Of a stretch of 64,000 nucleotides of DNA, positions 4,407 through 21,368 are shown one piece after another. Under the pieces are notes generated by a model. The model did not search any database, was not told where the DNA came from, and saw only the letters and a program-made list of their open reading frames with translations. Origin of the DNA: an uncultured Clostridia bacterium (GTDB lineage: Bacteria; Bacillota; Limnochordia; DTU080; RSA5); contig CAYRIY010000004.1 in assembly GCA_964424335.1 (NCBI GenBank), positions 9,068 through 73,067 on the forward strand, given 5' to 3'. The first letter of the stretch is position 1. Every line of letters begins with the position of its first letter. The translations under genes and the position numbers were made by a program.

Positions 4407-5428
4407 ACTTTTCGGACAGGCTGTTTGGAGCATGCCGGGAAAAGGGCAGCGCGGTCGTCGTTGGCATCGATCCGGACCCACTCTTAATCCCCCGATCGTA
4501 TTTTCCCGACCCGTTTCCTGAGATAAATCGTCGAGAGGCATTGGCACGCGGCGTTGTGGATTTCGCGGGGGACGTCATCCATGCGGTGCATGATGTCGCC
4601 GTGGCGATCAAGCCGCAACTCGCGCACTTCGAGCGGCTGGGCGCCCCCGGAATTGCGGCCTTTGAGCAAGTCGTGCAGCTCGGACGCGAAGCAGGCTTGT
4701 TGGTGATTGCGGACGGCAAGCGCAACGATATCGGGTCCACCGCCGAGATGTATGCCGCAGCTTATTTGGGCGCAAGGCGCCTCCAGCGCAAGATCCGATC
4801 AGAGGCGGCCGACTCCTTTGAATCGCTGCTCGCAGGCGCCGAGGCCGAGGGGCCCAAGGCGGACGCGCTGACGGTCAACCCATACCTCGGCTGGGATGGC
4901 ATCGAGCCGTTTCTTGACCGAGGCGAAGGCGCCACAGGCCTGTTTGTCCTCGTGAAGACGTCAAACCCGTCCTCCGGAGAGCTACAGGACCTCGAGGTGA
5001 TCGGGGATCGCGATGGTCGAGGCGCATCGCCGGAAGTTGCTTTGATCGGGGGATCCGATGGCCCGTACTCGGTTGCGGACGTGGTGGCCGCCTCCCTCGA
5101 GCGGGCGAGCGCGGCGCGCCAAGGAGCGCTCGGGTACGGCCCCGTGGGCGCCGTCGTGGGAGCGACGTACCCTGCAGAACTCGAGCGCCTCCGCCGCCTT
5201 ATGCCGCACGTGCCGATCCTCATTCCGGGGTTTGGCGCTCAAGGCGGGACGGCAGACGATGTGGCGCTCGGGTTTGACTCAAATGGCCTCGGCGCGGTCG
5301 TCAACGCATCGCGCAGCATCTTGTACGCCTATCGGGCAGGCGGGACAGTGGCAGAGGCCTCGCGGCGCGCAGCGGTGGAGATGCGCGACGCGCTGAGCGC
5401 GGCAATCGACCGCAGGCGGCCGGTGTAG
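4403..5428 (+). CDS. pyrF: Orotidine-5'-phosphate decarboxylase, long (type 2) form
   Basis: VVVGIDPD...IKPQLAHFE...VIADGKRNDIGST matches type-2 OMPdecase motifs. The gene overlaps the pyrC stop. Confidence 0.75.
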   Translation: MNFSDRLFGACREKGSAVVVGIDPDPLLIPRSYFPDPFPEINRREALARGVVDFAGDVIHAVHDVAVAIKPQLAHFERLGAPGIAAFEQVVQLGREAGLLVIADGKRNDIGSTAEMYAAAYLGARRLQRKIRSEAADSFESLLAGAEAEGPKADALTVNPYLGWDGIEPFLDRGEGATGLFVLVKTSNPSSGELQDLEVIGDRDGRGASPEVALIGGSDGPYSVADVVAASLERASAARQGALGYGPVGAVVGATYPAELERLRRLMPHVPILIPGFGAQGGTADDVALGFDSNGLGAVVNASRSILYAYRAGGTVAEASRRAAVEMRDALSAAIDRRRPV

Positions 5429-5529
5429 CAATTCGATTTGGCAACAGGCGCGTGGAGTTAGTCCACGTCGGTTACTTTGTGAACAGCGATCGTGAGATCA
5501 TGGCTTTTTTAGAAAACGAGGTGGCGTGT

Positions 5530-6621
5530 GTGAGCAAACAGGTGCGGGCCGTGTTGGCGCTCGAGGACGGAGCCTATTTCGAAGGGCGTTCGGTCGGAGC
5601 GGAAGGGCGCGTCTTTGGCGAGGTCGTTTTCAACACGAGCATGACCGGTTATCAAGAGGTCTTGACTGACCCCTCATACCGAGGGGAGATCGTCGCGATG
5701 ACGTACCCGCTTATCGGAAACTACGGCGTCAACGATGAGGACATCGAGTCGGCCCGCCCCCACGCCCGAGGGTTTGTCGTCCGAGAGCTCGCTGGCAACC
5801 CCAGCAACTGGCGCTCCAAGTTTCGCTTGGCTGACTTTTTAAAGCAGCACGGCGTCGTGGGAATCGAAGGCGTCGACACGCGCGCGCTGACGCGGCGCAT
5901 CCGCGAGCAAGGCGCGATGCGGGGCGTGATCGCATCCGGCGACGTCGATCCGAACGAACTCGTTCACGCCGCACGCAGCGCGCCCGACCTTTCGAGCCAA
6001 GACTTGGTCAGCGAGGTGAGTGTAAAGGAGCCTTACGTCTACGCTGATCTCGCCGGGCCGAGCGTCACTGTCGTGGACTTTGGCACAAAGCTGAACATCC
6101 TGCGCTCGCTAAAAAATAGAGGATGCCGCGTGACCGTGGTGCCGGCCAAGAGCACCGCGGCCCAGGTCATGGCAACGCGGCCGGACGGCGTCATCTTGTC
6201 GAACGGCCCGGGCGACCCGATCGGGGTGCCGTACGCCGTCGATACGGTCAAGGATCTGCTCGGCCATGTGAGCATCTTTGGCATTTGCTTTGGGCATCAG
6301 ATCCTCGGTCTTGCTCTCGGAGGCTCCAGGTTCAAGATGAAATACGGGCATCGCGGCGGAAACCATCCCGTAAAAGAGCTTGCGACGGGACGTGTGTACA
6401 TTACGTCGCAAAACCATGGATTTGCGATCGAAGATGGGAGCTTTAGCGATCCGAACGTCGTGGTCACGCACAAGAACGTCAACGATCAGACCGTCGAAGG
6501 CCTTGCGCACCGAAGCGTGCCGGCGTTTTCCGTTCAATATCACCCTGAGGCGTCGCCCGGTCCCAACGACTCGGGGTACCTCTTCGATCGGTTCATCGAA
6601 GGACTCACGCGCCCGGCGTAG
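5530..6621 (+). CDS. carA: Carbamoyl-phosphate synthase small (glutaminase) subunit
   Basis: A GTG start preceded by GAGGTGG gives VSKQVRAVLALEDGAYFEG, a typical CarA N-terminus. The protein has MTGYQEVLTDPSY and the catalytic GICFGHQ. The gene runs directly into pyrK with no carB. Confidence 0.85.
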   Translation: MSKQVRAVLALEDGAYFEGRSVGAEGRVFGEVVFNTSMTGYQEVLTDPSYRGEIVAMTYPLIGNYGVNDEDIESARPHARGFVVRELAGNPSNWRSKFRLADFLKQHGVVGIEGVDTRALTRRIREQGAMRGVIASGDVDPNELVHAARSAPDLSSQDLVSEVSVKEPYVYADLAGPSVTVVDFGTKLNILRSLKNRGCRVTVVPAKSTAAQVMATRPDGVILSNGPGDPIGVPYAVDTVKDLLGHVSIFGICFGHQILGLALGGSRFKMKYGHRGGNHPVKELATGRVYITSQNHGFAIEDGSFSDPNVVVTHKNVNDQTVEGLAHRSVPAFSVQYHPEASPGPNDSGYLFDRFIEGLTRPA

Positions 6622-6631
6622 GGGCGGCTAG

Positions 6632-7465
6632 GTGGTGCAAAAGCGATTGCCTGAAGTGATTCGATTACCTGTGTTGGACCACCGCGAAGTGGCAGAGGGC
6701 CATTGGGAGCTCATCCTTCCCCTCGAAGGGGGACTCGCCGACGTCGTACCCGGGCAGTTCGTCAACGTCCTCTGCCGGGACATCGCAGCTTACGACCCCC
6801 TGCTCAGACGGCCCTTCAGCGTTTACTGGGCGAACGGCGATAGGTTTGGTGTGATGTACCGAGTGGTTGGCCGGGGGACGCGCCTGCTTTCTCGCCTCAA
6901 GGCTGGCGATACGGTCGACTTGGTAGGACCGCTCGGCCGTGGATTCGATTGGCTGCCGTTTAAGGATCGCCAAGGTGGTAGGCTCGTCCTCGTCGGAGGC
7001 GGGGTAGGCGTACCGCCGATCTACTTCCTGTCCGAGCGGCTCAAGGCAGATGGCTTGAGCCATACGGCGCTCGTTGGATTTGCGGGCGCTAAGCAGATTG
7101 TGGCCGTCGATCGGTGGCGCGCTGGAGGCGTCGAGCCCCGCATCGCCACGGTCGACGGCTCCGTCGGTCACCCTGGTTTCGTCACGGACCTCCTGCAGGC
7201 GGCGCTCGAGCAGCGGGACTTCGGCGCCCCGGTTATGGGCGTGTTTGCATGCGGCCCTGCTGCGATGCTTGCCGCCGTTTCCGAAATCTGCAAACGCCAC
7301 GAGGTGCCCTGTCAGGTCGCGCTGGAAGAATGGATGGGATGCGGCCTCGGGGTTTGTCTGAGCTGCGTTTGCAAAGTCCAAGGAGAAACTGGCGAGCCCG
7401 AGTGGGCTAGAGTGTGCCGAGAGGGGCCGGTCTTTGACGGCGCGAAGGTGGTGTGGGGCGGATGA
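6632..7465 (+). CDS. pyrK: Dihydroorotate dehydrogenase electron-transfer subunit (PyrK)
   Basis: FNR-like fold with a C-terminal Fe-S motif CGLGVCLSCVC. Confidence 0.85.
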   Translation: MVQKRLPEVIRLPVLDHREVAEGHWELILPLEGGLADVVPGQFVNVLCRDIAAYDPLLRRPFSVYWANGDRFGVMYRVVGRGTRLLSRLKAGDTVDLVGPLGRGFDWLPFKDRQGGRLVLVGGGVGVPPIYFLSERLKADGLSHTALVGFAGAKQIVAVDRWRAGGVEPRIATVDGSVGHPGFVTDLLQAALEQRDFGAPVMGVFACGPAAMLAAVSEICKRHEVPCQVALEEWMGCGLGVCLSCVCKVQGETGEPEWARVCREGPVFDGAKVVWGG

Positions 7466-8403
7466 ACAAACAAGCGCAATTGCCCAAACCCGATTGCGAC
7501 CTTTCGGTGCAAATCGGCGACGTCGTATTCAAGAATCCGGTCATGGTCGCATCGGGAACGTTTGGCTACGGCGCCGAGTACGCGGAACTTTTCGACCTCG
7601 AACTCCTCGGGGCCGTCATGGTGAAAGGCGTATCGCTCGAGCCGTGGACCGGCAATCCGCTTCCTCGCATCGTCGAGACGCCGGCCGGGATGTTGAATGC
7701 GATCGGATTGCAAAATCCGGGGGTCGAGGCGTACGTCGAGCGTTACCTCCCGGCCTTGCGCGGCCGCGAGGTGCGCGTCATCGTCAACGTAATCGGAAAG
7801 ACCGTCGACGAGTACGTCGGCGTCGTCCGGCGACTGGAAGAGGTCGAAGGAGCCGACGCGTACGAGCTCAACATCTCATGCCCCAACATCAAAGAGGGAG
7901 GCATCGCGTTCGGAGTCGACCCCAAGATGGCCGCGGAGGTTGTAGGCGCCGTGCGCAAAGTTACGACTCGGCCGGTCATTCCAAAACTCTCACCAAACGT
8001 AACCGACATCAAAGTGATGGCGAAAGCGTGCGAAGACGCAGGGGCCGACGCGGTATCCGCCGTGAACACGTTTTTAGGCATGGCGATCGATGTGCGCTCC
8101 GAGCGGCCGGTGCTTGCCAACGTCGTCGGCGGGCTTTCCGGGCCGGCAATCAGGCCTTTGGCGGTGCGAATGGTTTGGGATGTGTACGAGGCGGTCGACA
8201 TTCCGATCATCGGCATGGGTGGCATCGCGAGCCTAGAAGACGCCATCGAATTCACGCTCGCCGGCGCTTCGGCGTTCGCCGTCGGCACCGCAAACTTCAC
8301 GAGTCCCACGCTGAGCGCGGAGATTGCCGAGAGCCTTCCCCAACTGTTGAGAGAGAAGGGCGTGTCTCGATTTGGCGATCTTGTCGGGCGCGCCCACGCT
8401 TGA
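7453..8403 (+). CDS. pyrD: Dihydroorotate dehydrogenase catalytic subunit (class 1B)
   Basis: NPVMVASGTFGYG...NISCPN...GGI TIM-barrel DHODH motifs. Confidence 0.9.
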   Translation: MGRMNKQAQLPKPDCDLSVQIGDVVFKNPVMVASGTFGYGAEYAELFDLELLGAVMVKGVSLEPWTGNPLPRIVETPAGMLNAIGLQNPGVEAYVERYLPALRGREVRVIVNVIGKTVDEYVGVVRRLEEVEGADAYELNISCPNIKEGGIAFGVDPKMAAEVVGAVRKVTTRPVIPKLSPNVTDIKVMAKACEDAGADAVSAVNTFLGMAIDVRSERPVLANVVGGLSGPAIRPLAVRMVWDVYEAVDIPIIGMGGIASLEDAIEFTLAGASAFAVGTANFTSPTLSAEIAESLPQLLREKGVSRFGDLVGRAHA

Positions 8404-9671: not shown

Positions 9672-11045
9672 TCAATGCGCTCTACTTGCCAGCGCGCCCT
9701 TCGCTCGGGGCGCGCTGGGGAGTTGAAACCCGCCTACCGTAAAGCAATACCGCACGAGGCGGCGGCGCGCGTGTTTGCGAATGGCGGGCTCGTCGAAGAC
9801 CATGGGCTTTGCATTCAGCTCCAAGATCCACGGGTGGCCGCTTCGATCGAGCGCCACATCCATCGAGAGTTCCCCGTGCGTCCCGCCCGTCGCGGCATCG
9901 AAGGCCGCAGCCGCCGTGACGATCGCATTTTCTAGATTTCTGACGACTTGATCGACGCGGTCAGCGCCCTTTAGCACGCGGCGGAGGAGCGGGATGAGTT
10001 TGGCCCTCGATCCTCCCCGAGGACGGTGGGTTGTGATCTGCCGCGGTCCTGCGATGCGCGCGGCCATCCCCGTCACGGTCCACCCTTTGACCGGATCGTT
10101 TTGGACCAATGCTCGGATGTCAAAGGGACGCCCGTGGTAACGCAGGAGAGGGATGGCCTGTTGTATCAAGTAGCGCCTTCCGGCCTGAAATCGGTCCAAC
10201 TGGGCCGAGAATGCGCCGATGTCGTAGTACGTCGCGGCCCTGATCCGCCCTTTTCCCAAGGTCGATCGCCAGAGGATTCGGCCGTTTGGGTGCAGATCGA
10301 TGCGGGCCGTTCCATTGCCAAGGCTGCCGCCGGCCCGTTTCATGTACACTTCGTGGTGCTTGCGCAAAAACTCCATCAAAGACGTTGCATCCCGATACAT
10401 GAGCGTCTCGGGGAGGTGCGCCTTGACGGCTTCGTGGTCCTTGAGGATGTTGTGCACTTCCCACTTGTCGAGCAATTTCGGGTTGAAAAAGTGGACGTCC
10501 GACTCTTCAATAAACCGCTTGCGGGCTGCGTCGACGCTCGCCCGCCGCTCAGCGTTGCGGTTGGGCACTCGGTTGTAGATGACGTGGGGAAATGGGAAGC
10601 GGCCGCGAACCCAGGCGCCGCTGCGGCCGCTGATCGTATACCCCGCGATGGTCCGATCACTCCAATTCACGCCTTCCGGCGTAAATACGTACGCGATCGC
10701 TCCCATCTCCTTGGCGACGAGGATCAAACGGCGAAACTGCCCGGAGCTCGCCGCAAACCGGCGCTTAGGATTCTTGCGTGAGGACGATGTGAAGATTGCG
10801 ATGACGGGGCCAAGTGACAAGCCGTGCTCGCTCGTACGCACGGAGACTCGCCAGCGACCCGGTAGGTGTAGGCCTTTTCGCTGAGAACTCACCAAGGCCA
10901 CGCGGGCTCCCGATGTCTTGAGTTCGATGGGCGTCAGACCGATCGTCACGCTGCCGGCCCGCCTGACCGCTTGGATCGCGTCGGATGTGGATTTCAGCTT
11001 TAGCATCCGACCGGGGCCGTTTTTTATTTCAAATTGCATGGGCAA
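9672..11045 (-). CDS. YheC/YheD-family ATP-grasp protein (paralog 1) with a ~90-aa N-terminal extension
   Basis: Shows the family signatures LGPVIAIF, VHFFNP..DKW, YMKRAGGSLGNG, PFDIRALVQ, TGMAARIAG, SMDVALDRSGHPWILELNAKP. It is the last gene of the minus-strand block. Confidence 0.7.
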   Translation of the reverse strand: MPMQFEIKNGPGRMLKLKSTSDAIQAVRRAGSVTIGLTPIELKTSGARVALVSSQRKGLHLPGRWRVSVRTSEHGLSLGPVIAIFTSSSRKNPKRRFAASSGQFRRLILVAKEMGAIAYVFTPEGVNWSDRTIAGYTISGRSGAWVRGRFPFPHVIYNRVPNRNAERRASVDAARKRFIEESDVHFFNPKLLDKWEVHNILKDHEAVKAHLPETLMYRDATSLMEFLRKHHEVYMKRAGGSLGNGTARIDLHPNGRILWRSTLGKGRIRAATYYDIGAFSAQLDRFQAGRRYLIQQAIPLLRYHGRPFDIRALVQNDPVKGWTVTGMAARIAGPRQITTHRPRGGSRAKLIPLLRRVLKGADRVDQVVRNLENAIVTAAAAFDAATGGTHGELSMDVALDRSGHPWILELNAKPMVFDEPAIRKHARRRLVRYCFTVGGFQLPSAPRAKGALASRAH

Positions 11046-11078: not shown

Positions 11079-12425
11079 TCAAAACCCGGCAATGTAGTTT
11101 GCATAGGCCATAGGCCGGTGGAATGAGCGCCACACTTGGCGCTTGGGGCCTGCGTCCGTAATCTTTCGGAACGGCTTGGCGTTCACTTCGATCAGCCAAA
11201 CTTGCCCTTTCCGATCGACGCCAAGGTCGAGGCCGACCTCGCCGAGCGGGCCGTCGAGCACTTCTTCAAGGGCGGTCACGATCTCGAGCGATGCGGTGCG
11301 GATCTTGGCCGCCACGCGCCGACCGTTCCTCTTGAATCGCTTGCGCAAGACGTAGGCAAGACCAAAGGCCGTTCCACCACGGCTCAGATTGGACGTGACC
11401 CTGCCTTGCGGAGCCACTCTGGCGTACGTCTTGGTCCGCGCCCACTCGCCATCGCCCGTCTTTTGCATGAGAATTCGCACGTCGAACGGGGCGCCGCCGA
11501 AGGTAGCAAGGTGAAGATCTTGCTGGACGATGTATCGCCGCCCGCGTTGAATGCGAGTAATTCCTTTGTATAGTGCATCAAACCGAGTCGTCCCATGGAT
11601 TCTGCGACCGTGCCGCCACTCGTATCCCGTGTGCGTCCGTCGCACCCGCACGACGCCTTTGCCTTGGCTGCCTTCGGTAGGCTTTACGTAGACGGAGCTG
11701 TGTTGGTCGAGAAACGCCTGCAGACTGGCGGGCCCGGTCAGTTGCCGCGTCTCGGGGATGTACCGAACCAGGCGTTCGTGCCGGGACATGCGCTGATAGA
11801 TCGACCACTTGTCAAAAAATCCTTCATTGAAATAATGGACGTCGGGGATGGCCTGCAAAACTGCTTTCGCACGTTGCGTGCTGGCACGCCGCTCCCAACT
11901 GCGCGCTTGCACGCGATCGTACACCACGTCGGGGAGGGGAAGGCGCCTTTTGACCCAACGCTTTCCGGAGCGAACGTACCCCTCCACGTAATCGGCGCCT
12001 TCCTCGATTCCGTCCGGGGCCGCGACGAACGCCACCATGCCCAAAGCCCTGCCATGGGCGATCAGGTGTTTGAGGTCCCCAGTGCGGACACCAAAGAGCG
12101 CCCGCCTTCCGCTGCGCCTCTTTTTGGCTGCAAAGATCGCGACGATCGGGCCGAGGCAGAGCGCCTGGCGCTCTGGCTCCCATCGAATGCGGAGCGTTTG
12201 CGGGAGCGAGAGGTAAAGGTCACTTGCGACCTTGGGACTGATGGCGACGACGTCAGAGCCTCGTTTGTTCGAAACAGGCACGGAGACGCTCTTAGCCCCA
12301 ACTTTTAGCGTCGCTTGATCAAGGCGCGGGGCGCCAAGCGACTCGAGAAGCGCCTCTGAAACGGCGATCCCGTCGACCCCCTCTTGGGCCCGCGTCAACT
12401 TGACCTTTGCGCTCTTGTATGGCAT
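11079..12425 (-). CDS. YheC/YheD-family ATP-grasp protein (paralog 2) with a related N-terminal extension
   Basis: LGPIVAIFAA, VHYFNEGFFDKW, VYVKPTEGSQGKG, PFDVRILMQ, GLDLGVDRKGQVWLIEVNAKP. The N-terminal ~95 aa parallel those of paralog 1. Confidence 0.7.
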   Translation of the reverse strand: MPYKSAKVKLTRAQEGVDGIAVSEALLESLGAPRLDQATLKVGAKSVSVPVSNKRGSDVVAISPKVASDLYLSLPQTLRIRWEPERQALCLGPIVAIFAAKKRRSGRRALFGVRTGDLKHLIAHGRALGMVAFVAAPDGIEEGADYVEGYVRSGKRWVKRRLPLPDVVYDRVQARSWERRASTQRAKAVLQAIPDVHYFNEGFFDKWSIYQRMSRHERLVRYIPETRQLTGPASLQAFLDQHSSVYVKPTEGSQGKGVVRVRRTHTGYEWRHGRRIHGTTRFDALYKGITRIQRGRRYIVQQDLHLATFGGAPFDVRILMQKTGDGEWARTKTYARVAPQGRVTSNLSRGGTAFGLAYVLRKRFKRNGRRVAAKIRTASLEIVTALEEVLDGPLGEVGLDLGVDRKGQVWLIEVNAKPFRKITDAGPKRQVWRSFHRPMAYANYIAGF

Positions 12426-12505: not shown

Positions 12506-13897
12506 TCAGCGCCGCTTACGCTTTTGGGGTCGTCGGCGGACCAATCCCCACCGCAACTTTAGGTCGCGGTTTTCGCTCCATTCTTTACCCTCACGCACCC
12601 ATTCAGGAATGACTTGCAGATGCTCTTCCATCCTCGAATAGTCCGGTAGGGTCTCAAGGTCGGACCAGATTGCCTCAAAGGCAGGGCGCATGACCTCTTT
12701 GTCGGATCGGTAAAATGCGCGGCAAATCTCGTTATGCGCAAACATATCGAGACGCAGGCGCTCGTAGTTCTCCGCGACCAGCTTTGCCAGGCATGCGATG
12801 GCGTGGGCGAAGTCGGGCGCTACGATCCAACTCGACGGGACTCGGTACTCAAAGCCGTGGCGCTGCCAGCGAAACTCGCCGAGGTATCCGTAGCGGGGGC
12901 GCCGCCGACGGGCGCGCTTTGGATCCTCGAGCATCGCCACGGGGAGCGCGAGGTAGTTGTCGAGCGCCCGGAGCAATTCCGTCGTGAGCGGCACGTCGCT
13001 GAAGTGGATGTGGCCGCCGATCGGGTAGCTGCGCACGGGGAGGCTTCCCGCCTGCCAACTCGAATCTTTGGGCGCGCGGCGAGCGGCCCTGCGGAGCAGA
13101 TCCTTGATGTTTGAAACGAGCACGACCGGGTCGGACGAAGGCGAAGGGCGCACCTCGACGATGGGCTTTGCCCCCCGGCGATATCGACTGCCCTGCTGGT
13201 CGTAACCGACCCGGCCGTGCCTGCTGAAATATCGAGACGCGTAAACGATCCCTTTGCCTCGGCGCATGATGAACTCGATGTCGGCGCCGAGCGTGACGGG
13301 CTTGCGGGCAAAGTCGAATCGGGAGCGCCGACGAGCGACGAAATGGGAGGCGGAGCGGGCATACAACCTGCCCGTCGTCGGTGTGAGCTCCGGGGTGGGA
13401 TCGACCCGCGTCGGCGCCGCTTCGTCCTTGCTGAGCGAGATGACGTCCACCGAGCCGAAATGCAGCCCGAGGGCGTAAATGCAGCGGACGGCCATCGCCC
13501 GGACCGCCCGCATTCGCTTTGAACCACCGTGTATCCGCTTGAGCTTCTTTCCGCTTCGCCGGTAAAGGCCAAGGACTCGCAAGTCGCATACGTGCACTCT
13601 GTAGCGGCCCTTTCGTCCATAGTACCGGGTGCGGATCCCGTGTGCGCGCAGGCGCTCAACGACTCTTTCTTTGTCTTGAGCGGCGCGGAGCGCTTCGGGC
13701 GGGTTGAGGACCCACTCGGCGCCGATGGGATCGAAATCCGTGGCGCCCCAGGACATGACGGCATCCCACGGTCCGGGTAGGTACTCGGAGTCAAACGTGA
13801 TTTTCCCTTCATTATCGTTGGGAAACTTCAGCCGCTTCGGTTTTCCTTTGGGCGGATGAATGGCAAGGAGGTTCACCGCGTCCGGGCCTCCTTCCAA
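12506..13897 (-). CDS. Uncharacterised ~460-aa protein (paralog A): degenerate ATP-grasp-like N-terminal half plus a C-terminal domain with GADIEF / GYDQQ / GGHIHFS motifs
   Basis: Shares YxLGLHFGSVDV, GAD[IP]EF, IVYASRY, GYD.Q, SNI..ALRRAA, GGHIHFS, LRALD.YL, RRR.RYG, FEYRV.SW with the ORF at 15382..16770. The N-terminal YRVHVCDLRVLGL...MAVRCIYALGLHFGSVDV resembles the ATP-grasp central and C-terminal sheets. No confident family assignment is possible from sequence alone. Confidence 0.6.
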   Translation of the reverse strand: MEGGPDAVNLLAIHPPKGKPKRLKFPNDNEGKITFDSEYLPGPWDAVMSWGATDFDPIGAEWVLNPPEALRAAQDKERVVERLRAHGIRTRYYGRKGRYRVHVCDLRVLGLYRRSGKKLKRIHGGSKRMRAVRAMAVRCIYALGLHFGSVDVISLSKDEAAPTRVDPTPELTPTTGRLYARSASHFVARRRSRFDFARKPVTLGADIEFIMRRGKGIVYASRYFSRHGRVGYDQQGSRYRRGAKPIVEVRPSPSSDPVVLVSNIKDLLRRAARRAPKDSSWQAGSLPVRSYPIGGHIHFSDVPLTTELLRALDNYLALPVAMLEDPKRARRRRPRYGYLGEFRWQRHGFEYRVPSSWIVAPDFAHAIACLAKLVAENYERLRLDMFAHNEICRAFYRSDKEVMRPAFEAIWSDLETLPDYSRMEEHLQVIPEWVREGKEWSENRDLKLRWGLVRRRPQKRKRR

Positions 13898-13969
13898 ACG
13901 ATCCGCCAGGTCGAGTCCAAACGAGGAGTTACGTCACATAAACGAGGGTAGCGGTCATCACAACACGGT

Positions 13970-14170
13970 CTAGCAGCGCATCGTGAGTATGAGTACAAAG
14001 ATGAGTCCCCCGAGGAGCACGACGTCGAACGGATTGGGAACGATCAGCACCTTGAGGAGTTCGATGCAGATCATTGCGACAATGACGACGAACGTCACGT
14101 CGAGGTTTCGCATTTTGCGCGACATGGATCGTTTCACCCTCACCGTGCAGGCTCGCTCGCCTGCTTTCAA
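13970..14170 (-). CDS. Possible small two-TM membrane protein (66 aa)
   Basis: Lies in the gap between two block genes on the same strand. It has hydrophobic segments VTFVVIVAMICIELLKVLIV and VVLLGGLIFVLILTM, and local GC content is lower. The coding evidence is weak. Confidence 0.3.
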   Translation of the reverse strand: MKAGERACTVRVKRSMSRKMRNLDVTFVVIVAMICIELLKVLIVPNPFDVVLLGGLIFVLILTMRC

Positions 14171-14268
14171 AGGAGTCGTGGCGTCAGTTCTTTCCCGCTA
14201 TCCTACGAGCCTCGGCGGAGGCTGGGAATAGTACTGAGTTCCCTAGTTCCCAGGTGGTAAGCGCATCC

Positions 14269-15363
14269 CTAGGAGTCTGTTGATTTCTTGCTCAAGTACC
14301 AAGCGTATTGAACGACACGGATGCGCGACGTCCGCCACGATTTCGTCAGGCGCGCTCTGGAGAAGAGCGCCCGTCCGGGTTGCCGGTTGACCTCGATGAT
14401 CCACAGTTTTCCTGTGCGGTCGAGGCCAAGATCGAGGCCGAGTTCGCCAAGGGTTGGGTGGGCGCTGGACATTTGGGCGGCGCATTTCAGCGCAAGGGCC
14501 CGAACCATTGCAGCGAGCGTCTTTGCTTTCGGGGCGCGGGGAAGACCGCGCACGAGGCGCTGCAGCGTCATTGCGGTTCCCCCTGCGTGCAGGTTGGAGA
14601 CAAACCCTCCGGGACGCCCGACACGCGCGCCGATCGCCGAGACGCGCCAGCGGCCTTCAATGTCACGTTGGACGATCGCACGTATGTCGACGGCAGACCG
14701 CCCTCGACGCATCAGGTCGAGGTCCTGCTGTACCAAGTATTCGTCAGGCGGTTGCCCGTCGACGGCAAATGCGACGAGCTGCGCTGCGTCTTTTAGGGAT
14801 CGCTTGACGGCAGCGCCTGATTCGGATCGTCTCGCCGCTTTCCAACCCGACTCGGATCGCACCGCCTTGACGATCCCCTTGCCCTGGCGGCCGCGCACCG
14901 GCTTGATGTAAAGCGCTCGGTGGGACTCGGCGATCCGCTCGATGGCATCGGCGCTCAGGGGTAAGGTTTCGGGGAGGTGAAGGGCGAGCTTGGGATCTTG
15001 AGCAAGGAGCGCATGGACCTCGAGTTTGTCCCCGAAGTCCGGGTTGAACACGGCAACCCCATATTCGCTCTCCAGGCGCCCAAGCGCGAGCCTGCACTTT
15101 TCGGCCTTCTCTTTGCCTAGGCCCCAAAGACGGTCGTGGACCACGTGAGGAAATCCTCGTTGAACGACTTTCCATCCCCCGTTCGTCGGGACGTACGCTT
15201 TGACGCGCCTGCGTTCCCAGTCGATGTCGAGGGGGGAGAAGACGTACCCTTCCATGTGGTGCCGTCTGGCGATCCGGATGAGTCCTCGCAGGTACGAGGT
15301 TTGCTCTCCAAACAGCCGCTTGTGAAACCGGCGCGCTGCAATTGCAAACACGGTGCGGGCCAT
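14269..15363 (-). CDS. YheC/YheD-family ATP-grasp protein (paralog 3, no N-terminal extension)
   Basis: VAVFNPDFGDKLEVH, LYIKPVRGRQGKG, AVDIRAIVQ, NLHAGGTA, ELGLDLGLDRTGKLWIIEVNRQP. Confidence 0.7.
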   Translation of the reverse strand: MARTVFAIAARRFHKRLFGEQTSYLRGLIRIARRHHMEGYVFSPLDIDWERRRVKAYVPTNGGWKVVQRGFPHVVHDRLWGLGKEKAEKCRLALGRLESEYGVAVFNPDFGDKLEVHALLAQDPKLALHLPETLPLSADAIERIAESHRALYIKPVRGRQGKGIVKAVRSESGWKAARRSESGAAVKRSLKDAAQLVAFAVDGQPPDEYLVQQDLDLMRRGRSAVDIRAIVQRDIEGRWRVSAIGARVGRPGGFVSNLHAGGTAMTLQRLVRGLPRAPKAKTLAAMVRALALKCAAQMSSAHPTLGELGLDLGLDRTGKLWIIEVNRQPGRALFSRARLTKSWRTSRIRVVQYAWYLSKKSTDS

Positions 15364-15381
15364 GGCAACCGCCTCCCTTAG

Positions 15382-16770
15382 TCAGATCTCCCAAGCCGCC
15401 TTGATGTCCCGATCCTCGTGCCACTCCTCGCCGGCCTCGATCATTTTGGTGAAGTAGGATAGCTCCGCTCGGTATTTGCGCCCTGTTTCGGTCCGAAGCA
15501 CGTTGTGGATCAGGCGCGGGTAAAGTGTGCGGAATCGCCCTTTTTTGGATAGATAAAACTCCTTGCTCGCCTGCGTCGAGGAGAGGTAGTTCCGATTCAA
15601 CCGCGGCCACTCGGCGGCCACCGTCTTGGCTAGGGCAAGCGTCGCCGTCGTGGCTTCAGGCGAGACGAGCCAGCTTGGCAGCACCCGGTACTCAAACCCG
15701 CCGTGTTCCTTGCGGCGAAAGTCGCCCGCACGGCCATACCGGCGCCTGCGTCTTTTGGCCCGGTGTCTTTGCTCGAGCAGCATGATCACAACGCCCAAAT
15801 AGCTGTCGAGGGCCCGCAGAAACGGGGTGGTCAGCGGCGCTCCACTGAAATGGATGTGGCCGCCGGTCGGGTACTTTCCCATGGGGTAGCTGCCGGCGAG
15901 CCACGAAACGCCCTTTGTCGGCAGGAGCTCCGCCGCTCGCCGCAATGCCGTCTCGATGTTTGCGACAAGCGTGAATGGGGAAGGGCTCGGATTTGGCCGC
16001 AGCTCCGCCAAGGGAAAGACCGACCCCCGGTTCGCGCGGCTTTGTCGGTCGTATCCCACGAGTCCGGAATGGGTCACATACCGGGACGCGTATACGATTT
16101 TCCCGCCCGCTTTGACCAGCGCAAACTCGGGATCGGCGCCAAGCGCCGCCTCGCTGGAAGGCTCCGGGGGCTCAACCCAGGATTCGGCCATGTCGGCAAT
16201 GCTCGCGCCATAAGCCCGGGCGAGGTCATCGTCCGCTGAAGGTTGAGCGTCGACTCGACCGACGTACCAGCGTCCGGATGGATGCACCATGACGTCGACC
16301 GACCCAAAGTGCAGTCCGAGGACGTATACGGCACGGCATGCCCCCTCGGCAATTCTTTGGTACTTCCAGCGCGAAATCGAGCGCATGGCTCCGCGGGCGT
16401 CATCGACCGCCAGGATGCGCAGGTCGGCCACGTGGACGCGCACAAGGGCGTACTCATCCCTCAATGGCGGCATGACCGGGCGCACAGCGTCGCGGGGCAG
16501 GCGCTCGGGATCCACGGGGATGCCATGCAGGTGAAGGAGGAGGGAGGTCTTCTCTGGTGAGTCGGCGATCCTTACCGCATTGACCGGATTGATCACGACG
16601 GCTGCCTTGGCAAGGGATGCGCTTTTTCCCCAACAAATGACCACGTCCGACTCGTTCGAAGACGCGCGGGCGCGCCGCTCGACGGTAAATCCCCGCTTGT
16701 CGAGCGCGTCGGCTACGGCCAAGACCGCGCTCGAGCGAACTTCTTTCGGGGCTAACAGTATCGCCTTCAT
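15382..16770 (-). CDS. Uncharacterised ~460-aa protein (paralog B of the 12506..13897 family)
   Basis: The N-terminus (VINPVNAVRIADSPEKTSLLLHLHGIPV; LVRVHVADLRILAV; AVYVLGLHFGSVDV) looks like an ATP-grasp N-terminal/central part. The C-terminal domain carries GADPEF, IVYASRY, GYDRQ, GGHIHFS, RRRRRYG, FEYRVLPSW. Confidence 0.6.
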   Translation of the reverse strand: MKAILLAPKEVRSSAVLAVADALDKRGFTVERRARASSNESDVVICWGKSASLAKAAVVINPVNAVRIADSPEKTSLLLHLHGIPVDPERLPRDAVRPVMPPLRDEYALVRVHVADLRILAVDDARGAMRSISRWKYQRIAEGACRAVYVLGLHFGSVDVMVHPSGRWYVGRVDAQPSADDDLARAYGASIADMAESWVEPPEPSSEAALGADPEFALVKAGGKIVYASRYVTHSGLVGYDRQSRANRGSVFPLAELRPNPSPSPFTLVANIETALRRAAELLPTKGVSWLAGSYPMGKYPTGGHIHFSGAPLTTPFLRALDSYLGVVIMLLEQRHRAKRRRRRYGRAGDFRRKEHGGFEYRVLPSWLVSPEATTATLALAKTVAAEWPRLNRNYLSSTQASKEFYLSKKGRFRTLYPRLIHNVLRTETGRKYRAELSYFTKMIEAGEEWHEDRDIKAAWEI

Positions 16771-16811: not shown

Positions 16812-17690
16812 TTACTGAACGTTCATGATTCGTCGGCGCATGGAGTCCATGACGCTTCCCGCAATGTCAGCGCCCGTGGCCGCTTCGACGTGTTGAAAGC
16901 CGGGGCAAACGTTGACGTCGATCACCAAAGGGCCCTCGGCCGTTTCGAGGATGTCGACAGCGGCAAAATCGGCTCCGACGGCGCGGGCCGCACGTACTGC
17001 CGCGTCCGCCGTCTCAATCTCTGCTTTGACAGGCATTGCTCGCGCGCCGAGCGACAGGTTGGCGCGCCATTCGCCCGGAGGAGGCGTCTTAGCCACTGCC
17101 GCAAGGACGCTTCCATCCAAGATGACGAGTCGCAGCTCCCGCTTTGCGCCGCTTACGAAGGACTGAACCAACATCGGCGATCCGTTCTCCTTTAGCAGGC
17201 GGAGCAGCTCTCGGGGCCCCGCTGCCTTGGAGACGAGAGCGCCTTTTCCGCCGATCAAGGGCTTGACGACGACCGGGTAGGAAACATGGCGCAGGTGGTC
17301 GACGGTGAGAGCGCTCATGATTCGGCTCTCCGGCTGAGGCACCCCGTGTTCAGACAGTGCGAGCGCGGCGAGCGCCTTGTCTCGGCCGTTTCGGACCGCC
17401 GCGGGTCCGTTTATCGTGGGCACGCCGACACGAGCGAGGACTTCGAGGACTCGAAGGCCCGCGAGGAGCGCGTCTTGGTCAATCCGCCCGATGGCGCCGA
17501 TCATGCTTGGATCTTGGCGGATCAGGCCCTTGGAGATTCCTTCGAACCGGGCGTGCTGCACGTCGAAGGCCCAGCGCATGGGATCGATCCGCACGAGGGA
17601 GATGCCCCGTGCCCGCGCGGCCCTGTGGAGCGCCTTCATCTCCCATGTCACGAAGTTGTCCCTGGTGATGACGGCCACGGCCCCTCTCAC
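16812..17690 (-). CDS. RimK-like ATP-grasp alpha-L-glutamate/peptide ligase
   Basis: A GTG start at 17690 overlaps the upstream glycosyltransferase stop (GTGA). The N-terminus VAVITRDNFVTWEMKALHRAARARGISLVRIDP parallels RimK MKIAILSRD...ILDP. Also present are PVVVKPLIGGKG, LVQSFV, ELRLVILDG, GADFAAVDIL. The longer ORF from 17786 is rejected as an antisense extension. Confidence 0.75.
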   Translation of the reverse strand: MRGAVAVITRDNFVTWEMKALHRAARARGISLVRIDPMRWAFDVQHARFEGISKGLIRQDPSMIGAIGRIDQDALLAGLRVLEVLARVGVPTINGPAAVRNGRDKALAALALSEHGVPQPESRIMSALTVDHLRHVSYPVVVKPLIGGKGALVSKAAGPRELLRLLKENGSPMLVQSFVSGAKRELRLVILDGSVLAAVAKTPPPGEWRANLSLGARAMPVKAEIETADAAVRAARAVGADFAAVDILETAEGPLVIDVNVCPGFQHVEAATGADIAGSVMDSMRRRIMNVQ

Positions 17691-18682
17691 GAAGGCCACG
17701 TCCTTATCGCATCGCGGTACACTTCGACCACCGCCTCGGCCATTTTCTCGATGGGAAACGTTCGGCAGGCGAACTCGCGACTCCAAGCGGCAAGGCGGCC
17801 GCGAAACGCCGCGTCTTGGGTGAGTCGGAGAATGTCCGTTCGGATGGTTTCCGATCGGGGCAACACACCGTCGTAACCGCTAAAGGAAGGGAACGCCTGG
17901 CCGTCGTAGCGATCGGGCGTGACCGGGCCCCCGTATTTGGCGCCCAAGACGAGGCCGATTGCGCCGCACGCGAGCCCTTCGCGAATCGCTCGGCCGGTGC
18001 CGCAGACGATGTGGCTCTCGGCCAACAGTTTTGAGACGTCGTCCACCCATCCGAGGGCGGTCAAACGAGGTCCGACCGGACGGTCGTTTGATGCGACCGC
18101 GAGGTGGGCGTGGGGAATGGCTTCGGTCGCTCTGATCAGTTCGTTTAAGCCGCTTCTCTTGGTTTCGTCAACCCTGCCGACATAGGCGATGCGAAGGCTG
18201 GGGCCCTTTGCGCCCGGAGAGAACCGCTCGGTGTCAACTCCGTTTTGGATGATCACCGAGGCGATGGAGTGCTTCATTAGGTCCTGCGCGACATTGGGCC
18301 CCACGGCAATGCACCGATCGACCTTGGCGACGTCCGGAAATCGACCCGCCACGCCCAAACCGTGACATGTGATCACGCACGGAACGCCGTGCGTCTCGCG
18401 CAGGCGAAGGAGACACGGGACGGCGACTGACGAATGGCCGTGCGCAATGTCGGGGGCGAAGGCCTCGGCCATTTTGAAGAACTGGCTCGATTTCACCGCA
18501 TGCCGACACGGAATCGCGTGTTGGTGCAACATGTCGGCGCAGGCCTTGACTGCGAGGGGCAATGATCGTCCGAGCGCAATCACGCAGACGTCGTGGCCCA
18601 TGTTGCCAAGAGCCCTGGCAAGCTCGACGAGGTGCGTCGTCTGGCCGCTTTGATGGAACTTAGCCGTGAGCAAAATGCGCAA
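17687..18682 (-). CDS. GT-B fold glycosyltransferase (family 1 / GT4-like)
   Basis: The N-terminus MRILLTAKFHQSGQTTHLVELARALGNMGHDVCVIA is typical of GT4 enzymes. The C-terminal half has the E-x7-E-like region (GRVDETKRSGLNELIRA ... GLACGAIGLV). Confidence 0.7.
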   Translation of the reverse strand: MRILLTAKFHQSGQTTHLVELARALGNMGHDVCVIALGRSLPLAVKACADMLHQHAIPCRHAVKSSQFFKMAEAFAPDIAHGHSSVAVPCLLRLRETHGVPCVITCHGLGVAGRFPDVAKVDRCIAVGPNVAQDLMKHSIASVIIQNGVDTERFSPGAKGPSLRIAYVGRVDETKRSGLNELIRATEAIPHAHLAVASNDRPVGPRLTALGWVDDVSKLLAESHIVCGTGRAIREGLACGAIGLVLGAKYGGPVTPDRYDGQAFPSFSGYDGVLPRSETIRTDILRLTQDAAFRGRLAAWSREFACRTFPIEKMAEAVVEVYRDAIRTWPS

Positions 18683-18724: not shown

Positions 18725-19888
18725 TCATCCTATGGCAATGGGGCGCGCTCCGTTCTCCTTTGGTCTCCACGCGTATTTGAACAAGCGGCGAGCGGCGAGA
18801 GTACGGATTTCATCTTCGTCAAAGGGAAAGGGCTTGGCGTTCATCTCGAGGATCGCAAGGCGCCCGTCCGCTGTCGGAGCGATGTCTGCCGAGAACTCGA
18901 AAAACTCTTCTCCGCGGCTTTCTTCGATGGCTAAAGCCGCACGGCAGACGAGCGATTCGACCGCGCCGCGGTCGATGCCGCACATATCGGCGACCTCGGC
19001 GAAGGGAACAATATGGCCGCCGCGAACCGTGTGAGTCGACACGTGACCGGGAGGCGCCGCGCGGCCTGTTACGCCCGTCAGGCTCCAGCCGGCCTCGGTA
19101 CGTTGGACGAGCGCGCGCAGGTCGACTCGGCAGCCGTCGATCGACGGGAGATCGACGCCCTCTTGAGCAATGTACGGCGTGGAACGGACGAGGTCGCCTA
19201 AGAGCTGAGAAAGCGTTCGGCGTCCGCACAAGGTCTGTAAGGGGGGATCCGGAGTTGCCCGGTTCGACGTGATCAAATAATTTCCGCGGCCTTGAGCCGT
19301 ACCTGGTTCGATTCTGACGATGCCTCGCCCAAGGCTGCCGTCCTTGGGCTTGAGGTAGACGACGCCCCACGATCGCAAGGCGCTCATCGCGTCGTCCACG
19401 TCTTGAACAACCGCAAATCGGGGGGTCGCAACTTGCTTCGCGCCCAATGCGGATAGCGCCTCGTCTTTGGCCAAAAAGCCGGGATTAAAAAGGAGGCGAT
19501 TTATTCGAATTTGATCTAGGAGCCGCTGCATGGTCGGGCGCCTTTCGAGCGATCGGCGAGCCAGTCGGTTGTAGATGGCGTTTGGCAGCGGCGCCGTCAT
19601 CCGCTTCCACTCGGATCCGTCGAAATGCCATCCCGCCACCGAGTTTTCGCGCACGTTTATGCCGTTGGGGGTGAAAAACAAGGTGCGTCCCCACGTGGGG
19701 CCGAGGAGGCCTAGGTGCGCGTACGTGTGCTCAGGTGGGCGCCCAAGCTCAAACTCCCGTTCCGATAGTGGATCGATCAATACGCCAAGCGCGCGCTCAC
19801 AGTAAGTCACGGGAAAATCAACCTCCACCAAGCATTGATATGCCGGCGGGGCCCACCGAGGTGACCTGGCTTTTTTTAGTCCAGTCAT
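18725..19888 (-). CDS. YheC/YheD-family ATP-grasp protein (paralog 4)
   Basis: LLFNPGFLAKD, VYLKPKDGSLGRG, RVDLRALVQ, GVTGRAAPPG, EFSADIAPTADGRLAILEMNAKP. Confidence 0.7.
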   Translation of the reverse strand: MTGLKKARSPRWAPPAYQCLVEVDFPVTYCERALGVLIDPLSEREFELGRPPEHTYAHLGLLGPTWGRTLFFTPNGINVRENSVAGWHFDGSEWKRMTAPLPNAIYNRLARRSLERRPTMQRLLDQIRINRLLFNPGFLAKDEALSALGAKQVATPRFAVVQDVDDAMSALRSWGVVYLKPKDGSLGRGIVRIEPGTAQGRGNYLITSNRATPDPPLQTLCGRRTLSQLLGDLVRSTPYIAQEGVDLPSIDGCRVDLRALVQRTEAGWSLTGVTGRAAPPGHVSTHTVRGGHIVPFAEVADMCGIDRGAVESLVCRAALAIEESRGEEFFEFSADIAPTADGRLAILEMNAKPFPFDEDEIRTLAARRLFKYAWRPKENGARPIAIG

Positions 19889-19909: not shown

Positions 19910-21031
19910 TCATACGACGCTCTCGGCAACGCCTTGTGCGACGCCGCTCTTTTTGTACGCAAGGTGTCTTGCAAACTCGGCCGGAGAGCGATCCGCCATG
20001 CTTGCAGCCTCCGTCTCGCCGGCCCGGTGAAAGGAGATCCGTCCGGTCCGGGAGTTTGCCTCCAGGAGCCAGCATCTGTAGTCTTTATCGATTGCAAAAT
20101 CGATGCCGAGTTCTGCTACGAGGCGGGTCGTCTTGCTCGTCGCCTCCGCGGTTTCGATGGCGAGGCGCTTGATGCTCTCGATGATCTCTGCGACTTGATG
20201 ATCATCCGCGCCGGTTTCGGCCAAGATTTCGTGCAATTTGCGTGCGCTTCCCCCGGCGTGGATGTTTGTGACTTTGCTCCGTCGACCGCCAAGCCGTGCG
20301 ACGACTCCGGTGACGCGCCATTCTCCGTCGCCATGACGCTGAACGAGCGCCCGGATGTCGAAAGGCCTGCCGTCGTACTTTAGGACGTCGATCGCCATCT
20401 GGACGATGCGCGGCCTTCCGCCGCCGCAGCGTGCGCTCACGGCGCCGATCGTGCGGACCATGCCCGATCGGACGCCGCGCCCTCCATGAATCCGGTACCG
20501 ATACCCTCCGGGCACGCGCTTGACCCACGCCACGCCCTTTCCCTGACCGCCGTTGATCGGTTTTACGTATACTTCACCGTACTGTTTGAGCATCGAGTAG
20601 AGCGTCGTTTTCGTCAGCACGCGGGTTGGGGGGAGGATCGGGGCGAGGGTCGGGTTTTTCCGCCATACCTTGTACATGCCCCATTTGCCCGTGAGGCGGG
20701 TGTTGAACATCGGTATCTTCATGCGCGCAAAACGACGTCGGACCGAGGGAATGCCGGCGAGGTCCGCTCTGCCTTTGGGCGACACGCGGTCGAAGACGGC
20801 GTCGGGAAATCGGTAGATTCCTTTTCGCCATCGCCCGTTCACCATTGTCCAGCCTCGAATCCGCCTGCGCGACCAGAGGACGTCGCGCGGAGAGAAGATG
20901 AACACTTCGACCCCGATGGTCCTTGCTTCCTTGATCAACCTGCGAAAAAACGTGGTCTGCTCCTGATAGGGACGGGTCTTGGATGAACGCCTGGCACAAA
21001 GGACACCTAAATAGACGTCGGGTTGTGACAA
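19910..21031 (-). CDS. YheC/YheD-family ATP-grasp protein (paralog 5), first gene of the block
   Basis: A TTG start at 21031 is preceded by AAGGGGAG; the ORF as tracked from 21223 is probably over-extended. Signatures: YLGVL, MFNTRLTGKW, VYVKPINGGQGKG, PFDIRALVQ, NIHAGGSA, ELGIDFAIDKDYRCWLLEANSR. Confidence 0.65.
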   Translation of the reverse strand: MSQPDVYLGVLCARRSSKTRPYQEQTTFFRRLIKEARTIGVEVFIFSPRDVLWSRRRIRGWTMVNGRWRKGIYRFPDAVFDRVSPKGRADLAGIPSVRRRFARMKIPMFNTRLTGKWGMYKVWRKNPTLAPILPPTRVLTKTTLYSMLKQYGEVYVKPINGGQGKGVAWVKRVPGGYRYRIHGGRGVRSGMVRTIGAVSARCGGGRPRIVQMAIDVLKYDGRPFDIRALVQRHGDGEWRVTGVVARLGGRRSKVTNIHAGGSARKLHEILAETGADDHQVAEIIESIKRLAIETAEATSKTTRLVAELGIDFAIDKDYRCWLLEANSRTGRISFHRAGETEAASMADRSPAEFARHLAYKKSGVAQGVAESVV

Positions 21032-21247
21032 ACTGGAGCTCCCCTTGAGGCGGGCAGCGCCCTGGCGACACGAAACCTTTTTCGAAAACACGCGGCGAGG
21101 GCAGGGCGCGGCGAGCACGCGTTTTGGCTGTGGCAGGAGCAATGTACGCTTGAGCGAAGGCTGTTGGATACAACCCGGCGCTCCTATTTTCGAGAAGTTC
21201 GACTTCCGAACAATGGGGCGCAAACAACGTTAATGTTCGTCTTTTGC

Positions 21248-21276
21248 TTGACGCATACCGGACAACGTGCTAACAT
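21248..21276 (+). promoter_or_regulatory. Candidate sigma-A-type promoter for purB and downstream genes (TTGACG, 17-nt spacer, TAACAT)
   Basis: The motif sits ~95 nt upstream of purB in the divergent intergenic region shared with the minus-strand block. It is flanked by two inverted ACGAACATT(A/C)AAC PurBox-like motifs at 21229-21240 and 21298-21310. Confidence 0.3.
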
Positions 21277-21368
21277 TGGGCCGTATCGCCACGAAAACAC
21301 GAACATTCAACCGGGACCTTACGTCCCTCGTCACGTGAGCGAGCTGGGCCCGGTGAGGAGGTAGACCT

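Follow-up and report, generated by a model that had tools for sequence, protein, structure and literature searches.

Two paralogous proteins of about 460 amino acids (aa), here called A and B, are encoded within a cluster of ATP-grasp ligase genes in an uncultured Clostridia bacterium of the Limnochordia. Their genes lie in a 64,000-nucleotide stretch of contig CAYRIY010000004.1 (positions 9,068 to 73,067), which in its entirety is referred to as the window. Each protein consists of an N-terminal ATP-grasp domain that is structurally preserved and catalytically dead, fused to a C-terminal domain of the PF14395 family (Phage phiEco32-like COOH.NH2 ligase-type 2) that retains the residues expected of a carboxylate-amine ligase. 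The cluster comprises five YheC/D ATP-grasps, one RimK-type ATP-grasp, one GT4-family glycosyltransferase, the two amidoligases A and B, and a small membrane protein. We lean, with modest confidence, towards the view that A and B are ATP-dependent carboxylate-amine ligases acting with the ATP-grasp ligases on a component of the spore envelope. Our computations show family membership, the folds of both domains, the degeneration of the N-domain, motif conservation in the C-domain, synteny, and the linkage to YheC/D genes and, in other lineages, to cotE.

The two domains of the amidoligases

The open reading frames (ORFs) that the initial annotation had described as a paralogous pair are 37% identical across ~435 aa (BLASTP, E 3e-70), far above chance. 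All motifs quoted for them are present in the sequences: Y[AV]LGLHFGSVDV, GAD[IP]EF, IVYASRY, GYD[QR]Q, GGHIHFS, LRALD[NS]YL, RRR.RYG and FEYRV, together with VINPVNAVRIADSPEKTSLLLHLHGIPV, YRVHVCDLRVLGL and LVRVHVADLRILAV. The annotation had regarded their architecture as unassigned and their family as unrecognizable, which does not stand. PF14395 matches A over profile positions 1-254 of 254 (E 2e-90, 302.9 bits) and B across the whole 254-position profile (E 2e-85, 286.4 bits), with a gathering score of 25 bits for the family; the model spans ~55% of each protein. PF14395 is likewise found in 120 of the 120 homologs listed, and several homologs carry the NCBI/UniRef label 'putative amidoligase domain-containing protein'. 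The family is said to have been defined from a comparative-genomics survey by Iyer, Abhiman, Burroughs and Aravind, in Mol Biosyst in 2009.

An alignment of 61 family members, A and B included, has 32 invariant columns, nearly all of them in the C-domain. These include G211, A212, D213, E215 and F216; D241; E256, R258 and P259; G293 and P296; G303, G304, H305 and H307; D322; R341; Y345 and G346; R352; and G358, F359, E360, Y361 and R362. Three motifs had been proposed to be invariant in the pair. For the residues of GAD-x-EF and GGH-x-H this holds across the family, whereas GYD-x-Q is less strict, with D241 invariant and G239 conserved at 90% or more. The C-domain adopts a glutamine-synthetase/GCS2-like fold, the broad fold shared by glutamine synthetase (GS), gamma-glutamylcysteine ligase (GCL), PafA/Dop and the YbdK/GCS2 carboxylate-amine ligases (PDB 1tt4). 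The acidic pair, H-x-H, E-x-R and arginines expected of COOH-NH2 ligases are all conserved, which bears out the ligase type that had been entertained for this half. By analogy, D213, E215, E256, R258, H305, H307, R341, R352, E360 and R362 may take part in binding metal, ATP or an acyl-phosphate. Since A and B each keep every invariant residue, both look catalytically competent as far as their sequences tell. The invariant residues follow the order of the motifs of Escherichia coli YbdK (GIELEM, ELAT, GGGTHP, GQHVHVG, an arginine-rich segment and VEVRV). Unlike A and B, YbdK is without an N-terminal ATP-grasp module, and it has no detectable profile similarity to them. Searches of PDB sequences (phmmer and profile searches) returned nothing meaningful for the C-domain, and neither sequence family nor a Pup/proteasome context placed A and B with PafA/Dop.

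The first ~200 aa of A and B have no Pfam match, and NCBIfam gave sub-threshold hints of RimK and MptN only. Their relationship to ATP-grasps is seen in a match to PHROG 2599 (phage 'ribosomal protein S6 glutaminyl transferase'; E 7e-7) and in a profile alignment with the RimK-like protein of the same operon (hhalign, 91% probability, E 1e-6). PDB sequence and profile searches returned only marginal ATP-grasp matches (E ~1). The predicted structure contains both a pre-ATP-grasp and a C-terminal ATP-grasp fold, with RimK (4iwx) as the top fold match. With the profile of this domain, 3909 proteins (E <=1e-3) were retrieved from 1.84 billion representatives. Besides ~450-aa two-domain proteins, these include stand-alone ATP-grasps of 230-270 aa (E 1e-19 to 1e-22). 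The one stand-alone protein scanned against PHROGs, P0213, belongs to phrog_2599 (E 7e-66), and seven of them share the motifs WG...LN..A...DK, EYRVHVFDG and A[LV]GLDFGAVD with the N-domains of A and B. The RimK-like ATP-grasps of phages in phrog_2599 are the closest relatives of the N-domain.

It is in comparison with these relatives that the losses become apparent. The N-domains of A and B are without a block of ~45 columns carrying the Gly-rich lid and the hinge, and without a second block of ~25 columns carrying the K..RN..GW loop; they have R-V-D where the relatives have the Mg-binding L-E-V-N. All three features, the LEVN included, are still present in the phage proteins. In the structural model, residues 82-107, at the site of the lid, form a loop without regular structure. 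The Mg-ligand columns vary among the 61 members (159: D20/H14/E9/R8; 172: R13/G9/S8/D8; 174: D30/S10/E6/N4). Neither the central lid subdomain, with its ATP-binding Lys, Gly-rich loop and hinge, nor the Mg2+ ligands were recovered in the N-domain. By contrast, all five YheC/D paralogs of the operon keep an invariant ATP-binding Lys, Gly-rich loop and E-x-N. Because the lid/Gly-rich block, the K..RN..GW loop and the Mg ligands have been lost, we conclude that the N-domain is a dead ATP-grasp of RimK-type fold, in agreement with the degenerate ATP-grasp-like N-terminus originally suggested. A separate candidate origin, as a duplicate of YheC/D, was rejected: hhalign against the YheC/D paralogs of the operon gave 12%, and PF14398, the family of Bacillus subtilis YheC/YheD to which these five co-operonic paralogs belong, has no match in A or B.

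The two domains form a single, widespread protein. The full-length model of B (AlphaFold2, 61 homologs) is one compact unit, with a mean predicted local distance difference test (pLDDT) score of 92.4 and a predicted template modeling (pTM) score of 0.93. Across the Bacillota, 403 matches were found; most of the homologs are 440-560 aa long, and the closer relatives align through both halves. These lengths, the alignments and the compact model rule out that A and B arose as an artifact of smaller, frameshifted genes, a concern raised at the outset. The nearest genomes are metagenome-assembled genomes (MAGs) of Limnochordia and Clostridia, at 51-56% identity. A Limnochordia MAG (locus L001) and a Clostridia MAG (locus L003) carry syntenic orthologs of A at 52-53% identity and have both A-type and B-type genes, so that the duplication is old. 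A and B are ancient paralogs in the Bacillota branch of PF14395.

Related loci, cotE linkage and phage relatives

Neighborhoods were counted at 24 other loci with a related amidoligase. L001 and L003 keep the gene order of the entire nine-gene cluster, and a third MAG (L002) keeps it as far as its contig reaches; all three MAGs are Limnochordia-like. The interleaving of A and B with ATP-grasp genes, already remarked on from the window's letters, is confirmed by the PF14398 and PF08443 neighbors, and it extends beyond this cluster. Elsewhere a single amidoligase directly adjoins one to four YheC/D genes (15 of the 24 loci). The spore-coat gene cotE (PF10628) is adjacent or close to the amidoligase at 13 of the 24, in Paenibacillus, Brevibacillus, Aneurinibacillus, Clostridia and Bacillota MAGs. 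In the three named genera, cotE is followed 70-140 bp downstream by the amidoligase on its strand, and mutS borders the amidoligase on the other side. In B. subtilis, YheC and YheD are spore-coat proteins, YheD being found in the SpoIVA-dependent basement layer, and Limnochorda pilosa is counted as a spore-former (PMC7725329; bioRxiv 10.1101/2022.02.25.481979).

Two MAG loci show richer arrangements. At L027, the order is cotE, a YheC/D gene, the amidoligase, three YheC/D genes and a GNAT acetyltransferase (13336-13812), the last of these a third class of amide-forming enzyme in the module. At L026, in a Bacillota MAG, cotE and three YheC/D genes are divergent from a gene pair that consists of an M14/AstE-like peptidase and the amidoligase. 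This peptidase (5366-7822) is an 818-aa protein with AstE/AspA-like and Peptidase_M99 (M14-type zinc carboxypeptidase-like) regions, encoded directly upstream of the amidoligase. Reminiscent of the pairs formed by tubulin polyglutamylases and carboxypeptidases, it is a possible 'eraser' partner.

In phages, PF14395 members are single-domain proteins of ~265-285 aa, encoded beside separate ATP-grasp, GAT-II and GGCT genes, whereas the Bacillota proteins have the additional dead ATP-grasp domain at their N-terminus and have YheC/D and cotE as neighbors instead of the phage cassette genes. In Vibrio phage BA6, for example, genes for a GAT-II protein, a PF14395 protein of 282 aa, another 'amidoligase' and a phrog_2599-type ATP-grasp lie within ~5 kb of each other. 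PF14395, Amidoligase_2, GAT-II, ATP-grasp and GGCT-like genes occur in the LUZ24-like phage UFV-P2, and a neighborhood with ATP-grasp ligases is common to the phage members and to A and B (PMC3890496). The metagenomic contig encoding P0213 has its ATP-grasp next to a GGACT and a GAT-II-like gene, and fold matches in BFVD include the 'COOH.NH2 ligase-type 2' protein of phage CW02 as well as phage ATP-grasps. Since the two modules are encoded by separate genes within one phage cassette, the Bacillota protein looks like a fusion of homologs of two cassette partners, of which the ATP-grasp half then decayed. A tblastn search with the C-domain gave zero matches in 50,697 phage genomes, because the phage PF14395 members are too distant for BLAST, and a match to PHROG 3815 covers ~70-90 residues only. 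For the widespread phage cassettes, too, the function is a prediction, namely cell-wall modification or superinfection exclusion as it is cited in PMC10580990. Among the phage 'ATP-grasp domain-containing proteins', some reach 600-750 aa (the phrog_2599 profile has 708 positions), and two BFVD entries, A0A2H5BQ24 (750 aa, Vibrio phage Vp_R1) and A0A7G5CG69 (618 aa, a Proteus phage), match the full two-domain model. Phages, too, may encode fused multi-ligase proteins.

Proposed function and competing explanations

What we infer for A and B is their ligase chemistry, what the N-domain does, which substrate they use and when in sporulation they act. If the C-domain works as GS, GCL, YbdK and PafA do, it would bind ATP and Mg2+ and phosphorylate a carboxylate, resulting in an acyl-phosphate; attack by an amine would then form an amide bond. 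The N-domain, no longer a ligase, could serve as a docking or substrate-recognition module, with the acceptor or the active ATP-grasp ligases as its partners; in the model it appears tightly packed on the ligase domain (pTM 0.93). Between them, the products of the operon would most likely assemble or lengthen a decoration, amide-linked (a peptide or poly-amino-acid) and perhaps glycosylated, on a component of the spore envelope or coat during sporulation. In a more specific version of this, which we consider doubtful, the cotE-linked amidoligases and YheC/D would constitute an ATP-driven system for tagging or cross-linking coat proteins, comparable to pupylation or polyglutamylation. In this scheme, isopeptide bonds made by the GS-fold domain would prime or cross-link proteins of the coat, perhaps those that depend on CotE. 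The dead ATP-grasp, a relic of the phage cassette, would dock that domain onto the elongating ATP-grasps or the substrate, and the M14-like peptidase would act as the eraser.

Several observations weigh against a spore-envelope ligase. The mapping of residues onto YbdK follows motif order and the fold match, not a residue-level superposition. Run against E. coli YbdK, the family profile reached an hhalign probability of 1% and gave no profile link, so that it is fold and motif order which connect the C-domain to GCS2. Docking by the N-domain is purely inferential. A regular-expression search upstream of the cluster recognized no SigE- or SigK-like promoter. The literature searched, on PF14395, on amidoligases and the spore coat and on cotE, contained no experimental or biochemical work on any PF14395 member. 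Moreover, no cotE is present in the window or near the cluster in L001-L003, and the cluster lies between pyr/purE genes and purB/purS/purQ/purL. This absence of cotE and these housekeeping flanks would suit an operon whose product is a polymer of the vegetative cell envelope (e.g. a teichuronopeptide-like glycan-peptide polymer) or a small peptide metabolite, made by a non-ribosomal series of enzymes to which the amidoligases contribute one amide bond. Successive action in the making of peptide metabolites, teichuronopeptides and similar products has been described for linked ATP-grasp and COOH-NH2 ligases (PMC4431377). The GT4 glycosyltransferase and the small membrane protein within the conserved cluster point in the same direction. 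We nevertheless consider a vegetative product rather unlikely, given that the amidoligase recurs beside cotE across several orders and that the named hosts among the homolog matches belong to lineages of endospore-formers. The place of YheC/D among the coat proteins of B. subtilis (PMC7725329) argues against it as well.

The remaining explanations concern the enzymes rather than the product. Dop, a hydrolase, falls in the same fold as the C-domain, which counts against ligation and would fit a domain running in reverse, as an amidase that uses ATP as a cofactor and trims or removes amino-acid tags added by the YheC/D and RimK ligases; we find such a Dop-like activity quite improbable. That both domains are active, making A and B bifunctional two-step ligases like GshF (a GCL domain fused to an ATP-grasp glutathione synthetase), is very improbable: the ~45 and ~25 columns with the Gly-rich lid, hinge and K..RN..GW loop are deleted, E-x-N has become R-V-D, and the matching columns vary freely in the 61 homologs, while the five YheC/D paralogs retain the Lys, the Gly loop and E-x-N. 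Finally, the absence of a PDB chain match by sequence and the restriction of Pfam coverage to the C-terminal half could be taken to indicate an unrecognized family without assignable relatives. We give this next to no credence, as it is refuted by the full-profile PF14395 matches (E 1e-85 to 1e-90) and by the 403 homologs, several of which are named as putative amidoligases.

The spore-envelope ligase that we favor is proposed for members of a known, named family, and the window brings no new kind of enzyme. Whether A and B fall, over their full length, in an already characterized family had been posed as a decisive question. The family is indeed named and computationally described, but its Pfam model covers about 55% of the proteins, and in the literature searched it is experimentally uncharacterized. 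Relative to that literature, from which the founding 2009 survey is excluded, two things may be new: that the N-terminal module is recognized as a phage-type ATP-grasp without a lid, and that linkage to cotE recurs. The window offers three handles: the fusion of a disabled phage-type ATP-grasp to an intact GS-fold ligase in the Bacillota amidoligases, the association of these with YheC/D genes, and their position directly downstream of cotE in culturable Paenibacillus, Brevibacillus and Aneurinibacillus. These make the hypothesis of spore-coat amide ligation testable by genetics in culturable relatives, and the value of the analysis lies in this concrete hypothesis on the YheC/D-amidoligase module of endospore-formers.

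The ligase cluster and its flanks

Features of the ligase cluster, in window coordinates; lengths refer to the ORF unless a public gene call is given
Feature	Position	Strand	Details
Amidoligase paralog A	12506..13897	-	463 aa counted from TTG
A, N-terminal lid-less ATP-grasp-like domain	13307..13897		~aa 1-197 (463-aa numbering)
A, PF14395 domain	12542..13291		aa 203-452 (463-aa numbering)
Amidoligase paralog B	15382..16770	-	462 aa, ATG start
B, N-terminal lid-less ATP-grasp-like domain	16156..16770		aa 1-205
B, PF14395 COOH-NH2 ligase domain	15385..16143		aa 210-462
YheC/D-type ATP-grasp, first cluster gene	19910..21223	-	PF14398 E 1.4e-64; 437 aa, 373 aa in public gene call
Divergent YheC/D-type ATP-grasp	18725..19888	-	PF14398 E 8.3e-37; 387 aa, 361 aa in public gene call
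GT4-family glycosyltransferase	17687..18682	-	PF13439 E 4.4e-20; 331 aa; syntenic in L001-L003
RimK-type ATP-grasp, directly upstream of B	16812..17786	-	PF08443 E 4e-26; 324 aa, 292 aa in public gene call
YheC/D-type ATP-grasp, between B and A	14269..15363	-	PF14398 E 2.9e-66; 364 aa
Conserved two-helix membrane ORF, unannotated, between third YheC/D gene and A	13970..14125	-	51 aa
YheC/D-type ATP-grasp	11079..12425	-	PF14398 E 3.6e-78; 448 aa; syntenic in L001 and L003
YheC/D-type ATP-grasp, last cluster gene	9672..11045	-	PF14398 E 5.7e-66; 457 aa; syntenic in L001 and L003

The start of A probably differs from that of the mechanically called ORF. Its TTG falls within the gene's own Shine-Dalgarno sequence (GGAAGGAGG), and a GTG at 13876 follows 9 nt later. 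Because of this spacing, and because the ortholog in L001 starts at the equivalent position, we favor the GTG, resulting in a protein of 456 aa. This difference in start may explain the absence of the exact 463-aa sequence from the protein collection. The public gene calls in the table are those on L021, an identical contig, and are shorter than the mechanically called ORFs. With the start given there, 4 nt of the RimK-type gene lie within the GT4 gene, suggesting that the two are translationally coupled.

The 51-aa ORF (MSRKMRNLDVTFVVIVAMICIELLKVLIVPNPFDVVLLGGLIFVLILTMRC) is preceded by a ribosome-binding-site-like sequence (GGTGAGGGTGA) and encodes two hydrophobic helices linked by PNPFD. 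It has no Pfam match, and orthologs occupy the same position in L001 (12663-12818) and L003 (12665-12829), with the shared motif ...LLKV.I.PNPFDV.LLGGLI.VLILT. It is a candidate tenth gene of the operon, probably for a small membrane subunit. Three of the YheC/D products, the longer ones (9672-11045, 11079-12425 and 19910-21223), have an N-terminal extension of ~170-190 aa before PF14398, an additional domain in which no Pfam match was found.

A scan for internal terminators and sigma-70 promoters in the cluster gave results at chance level. In the intergenic region between purB and the ligase cluster (~21224-21368), a block is conserved in the window, L001, L002 and L003. Inverted GTTCG...CGAAC boxes in this block flank a sigma-70-like promoter (TTGACG-17-TAACAT, 21248-21276, + strand) directed to purB. 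The box pair resembles the PurBoxes of PurR. The conserved block belongs to the purB promoter and would regulate purB rather than the ligase cluster.

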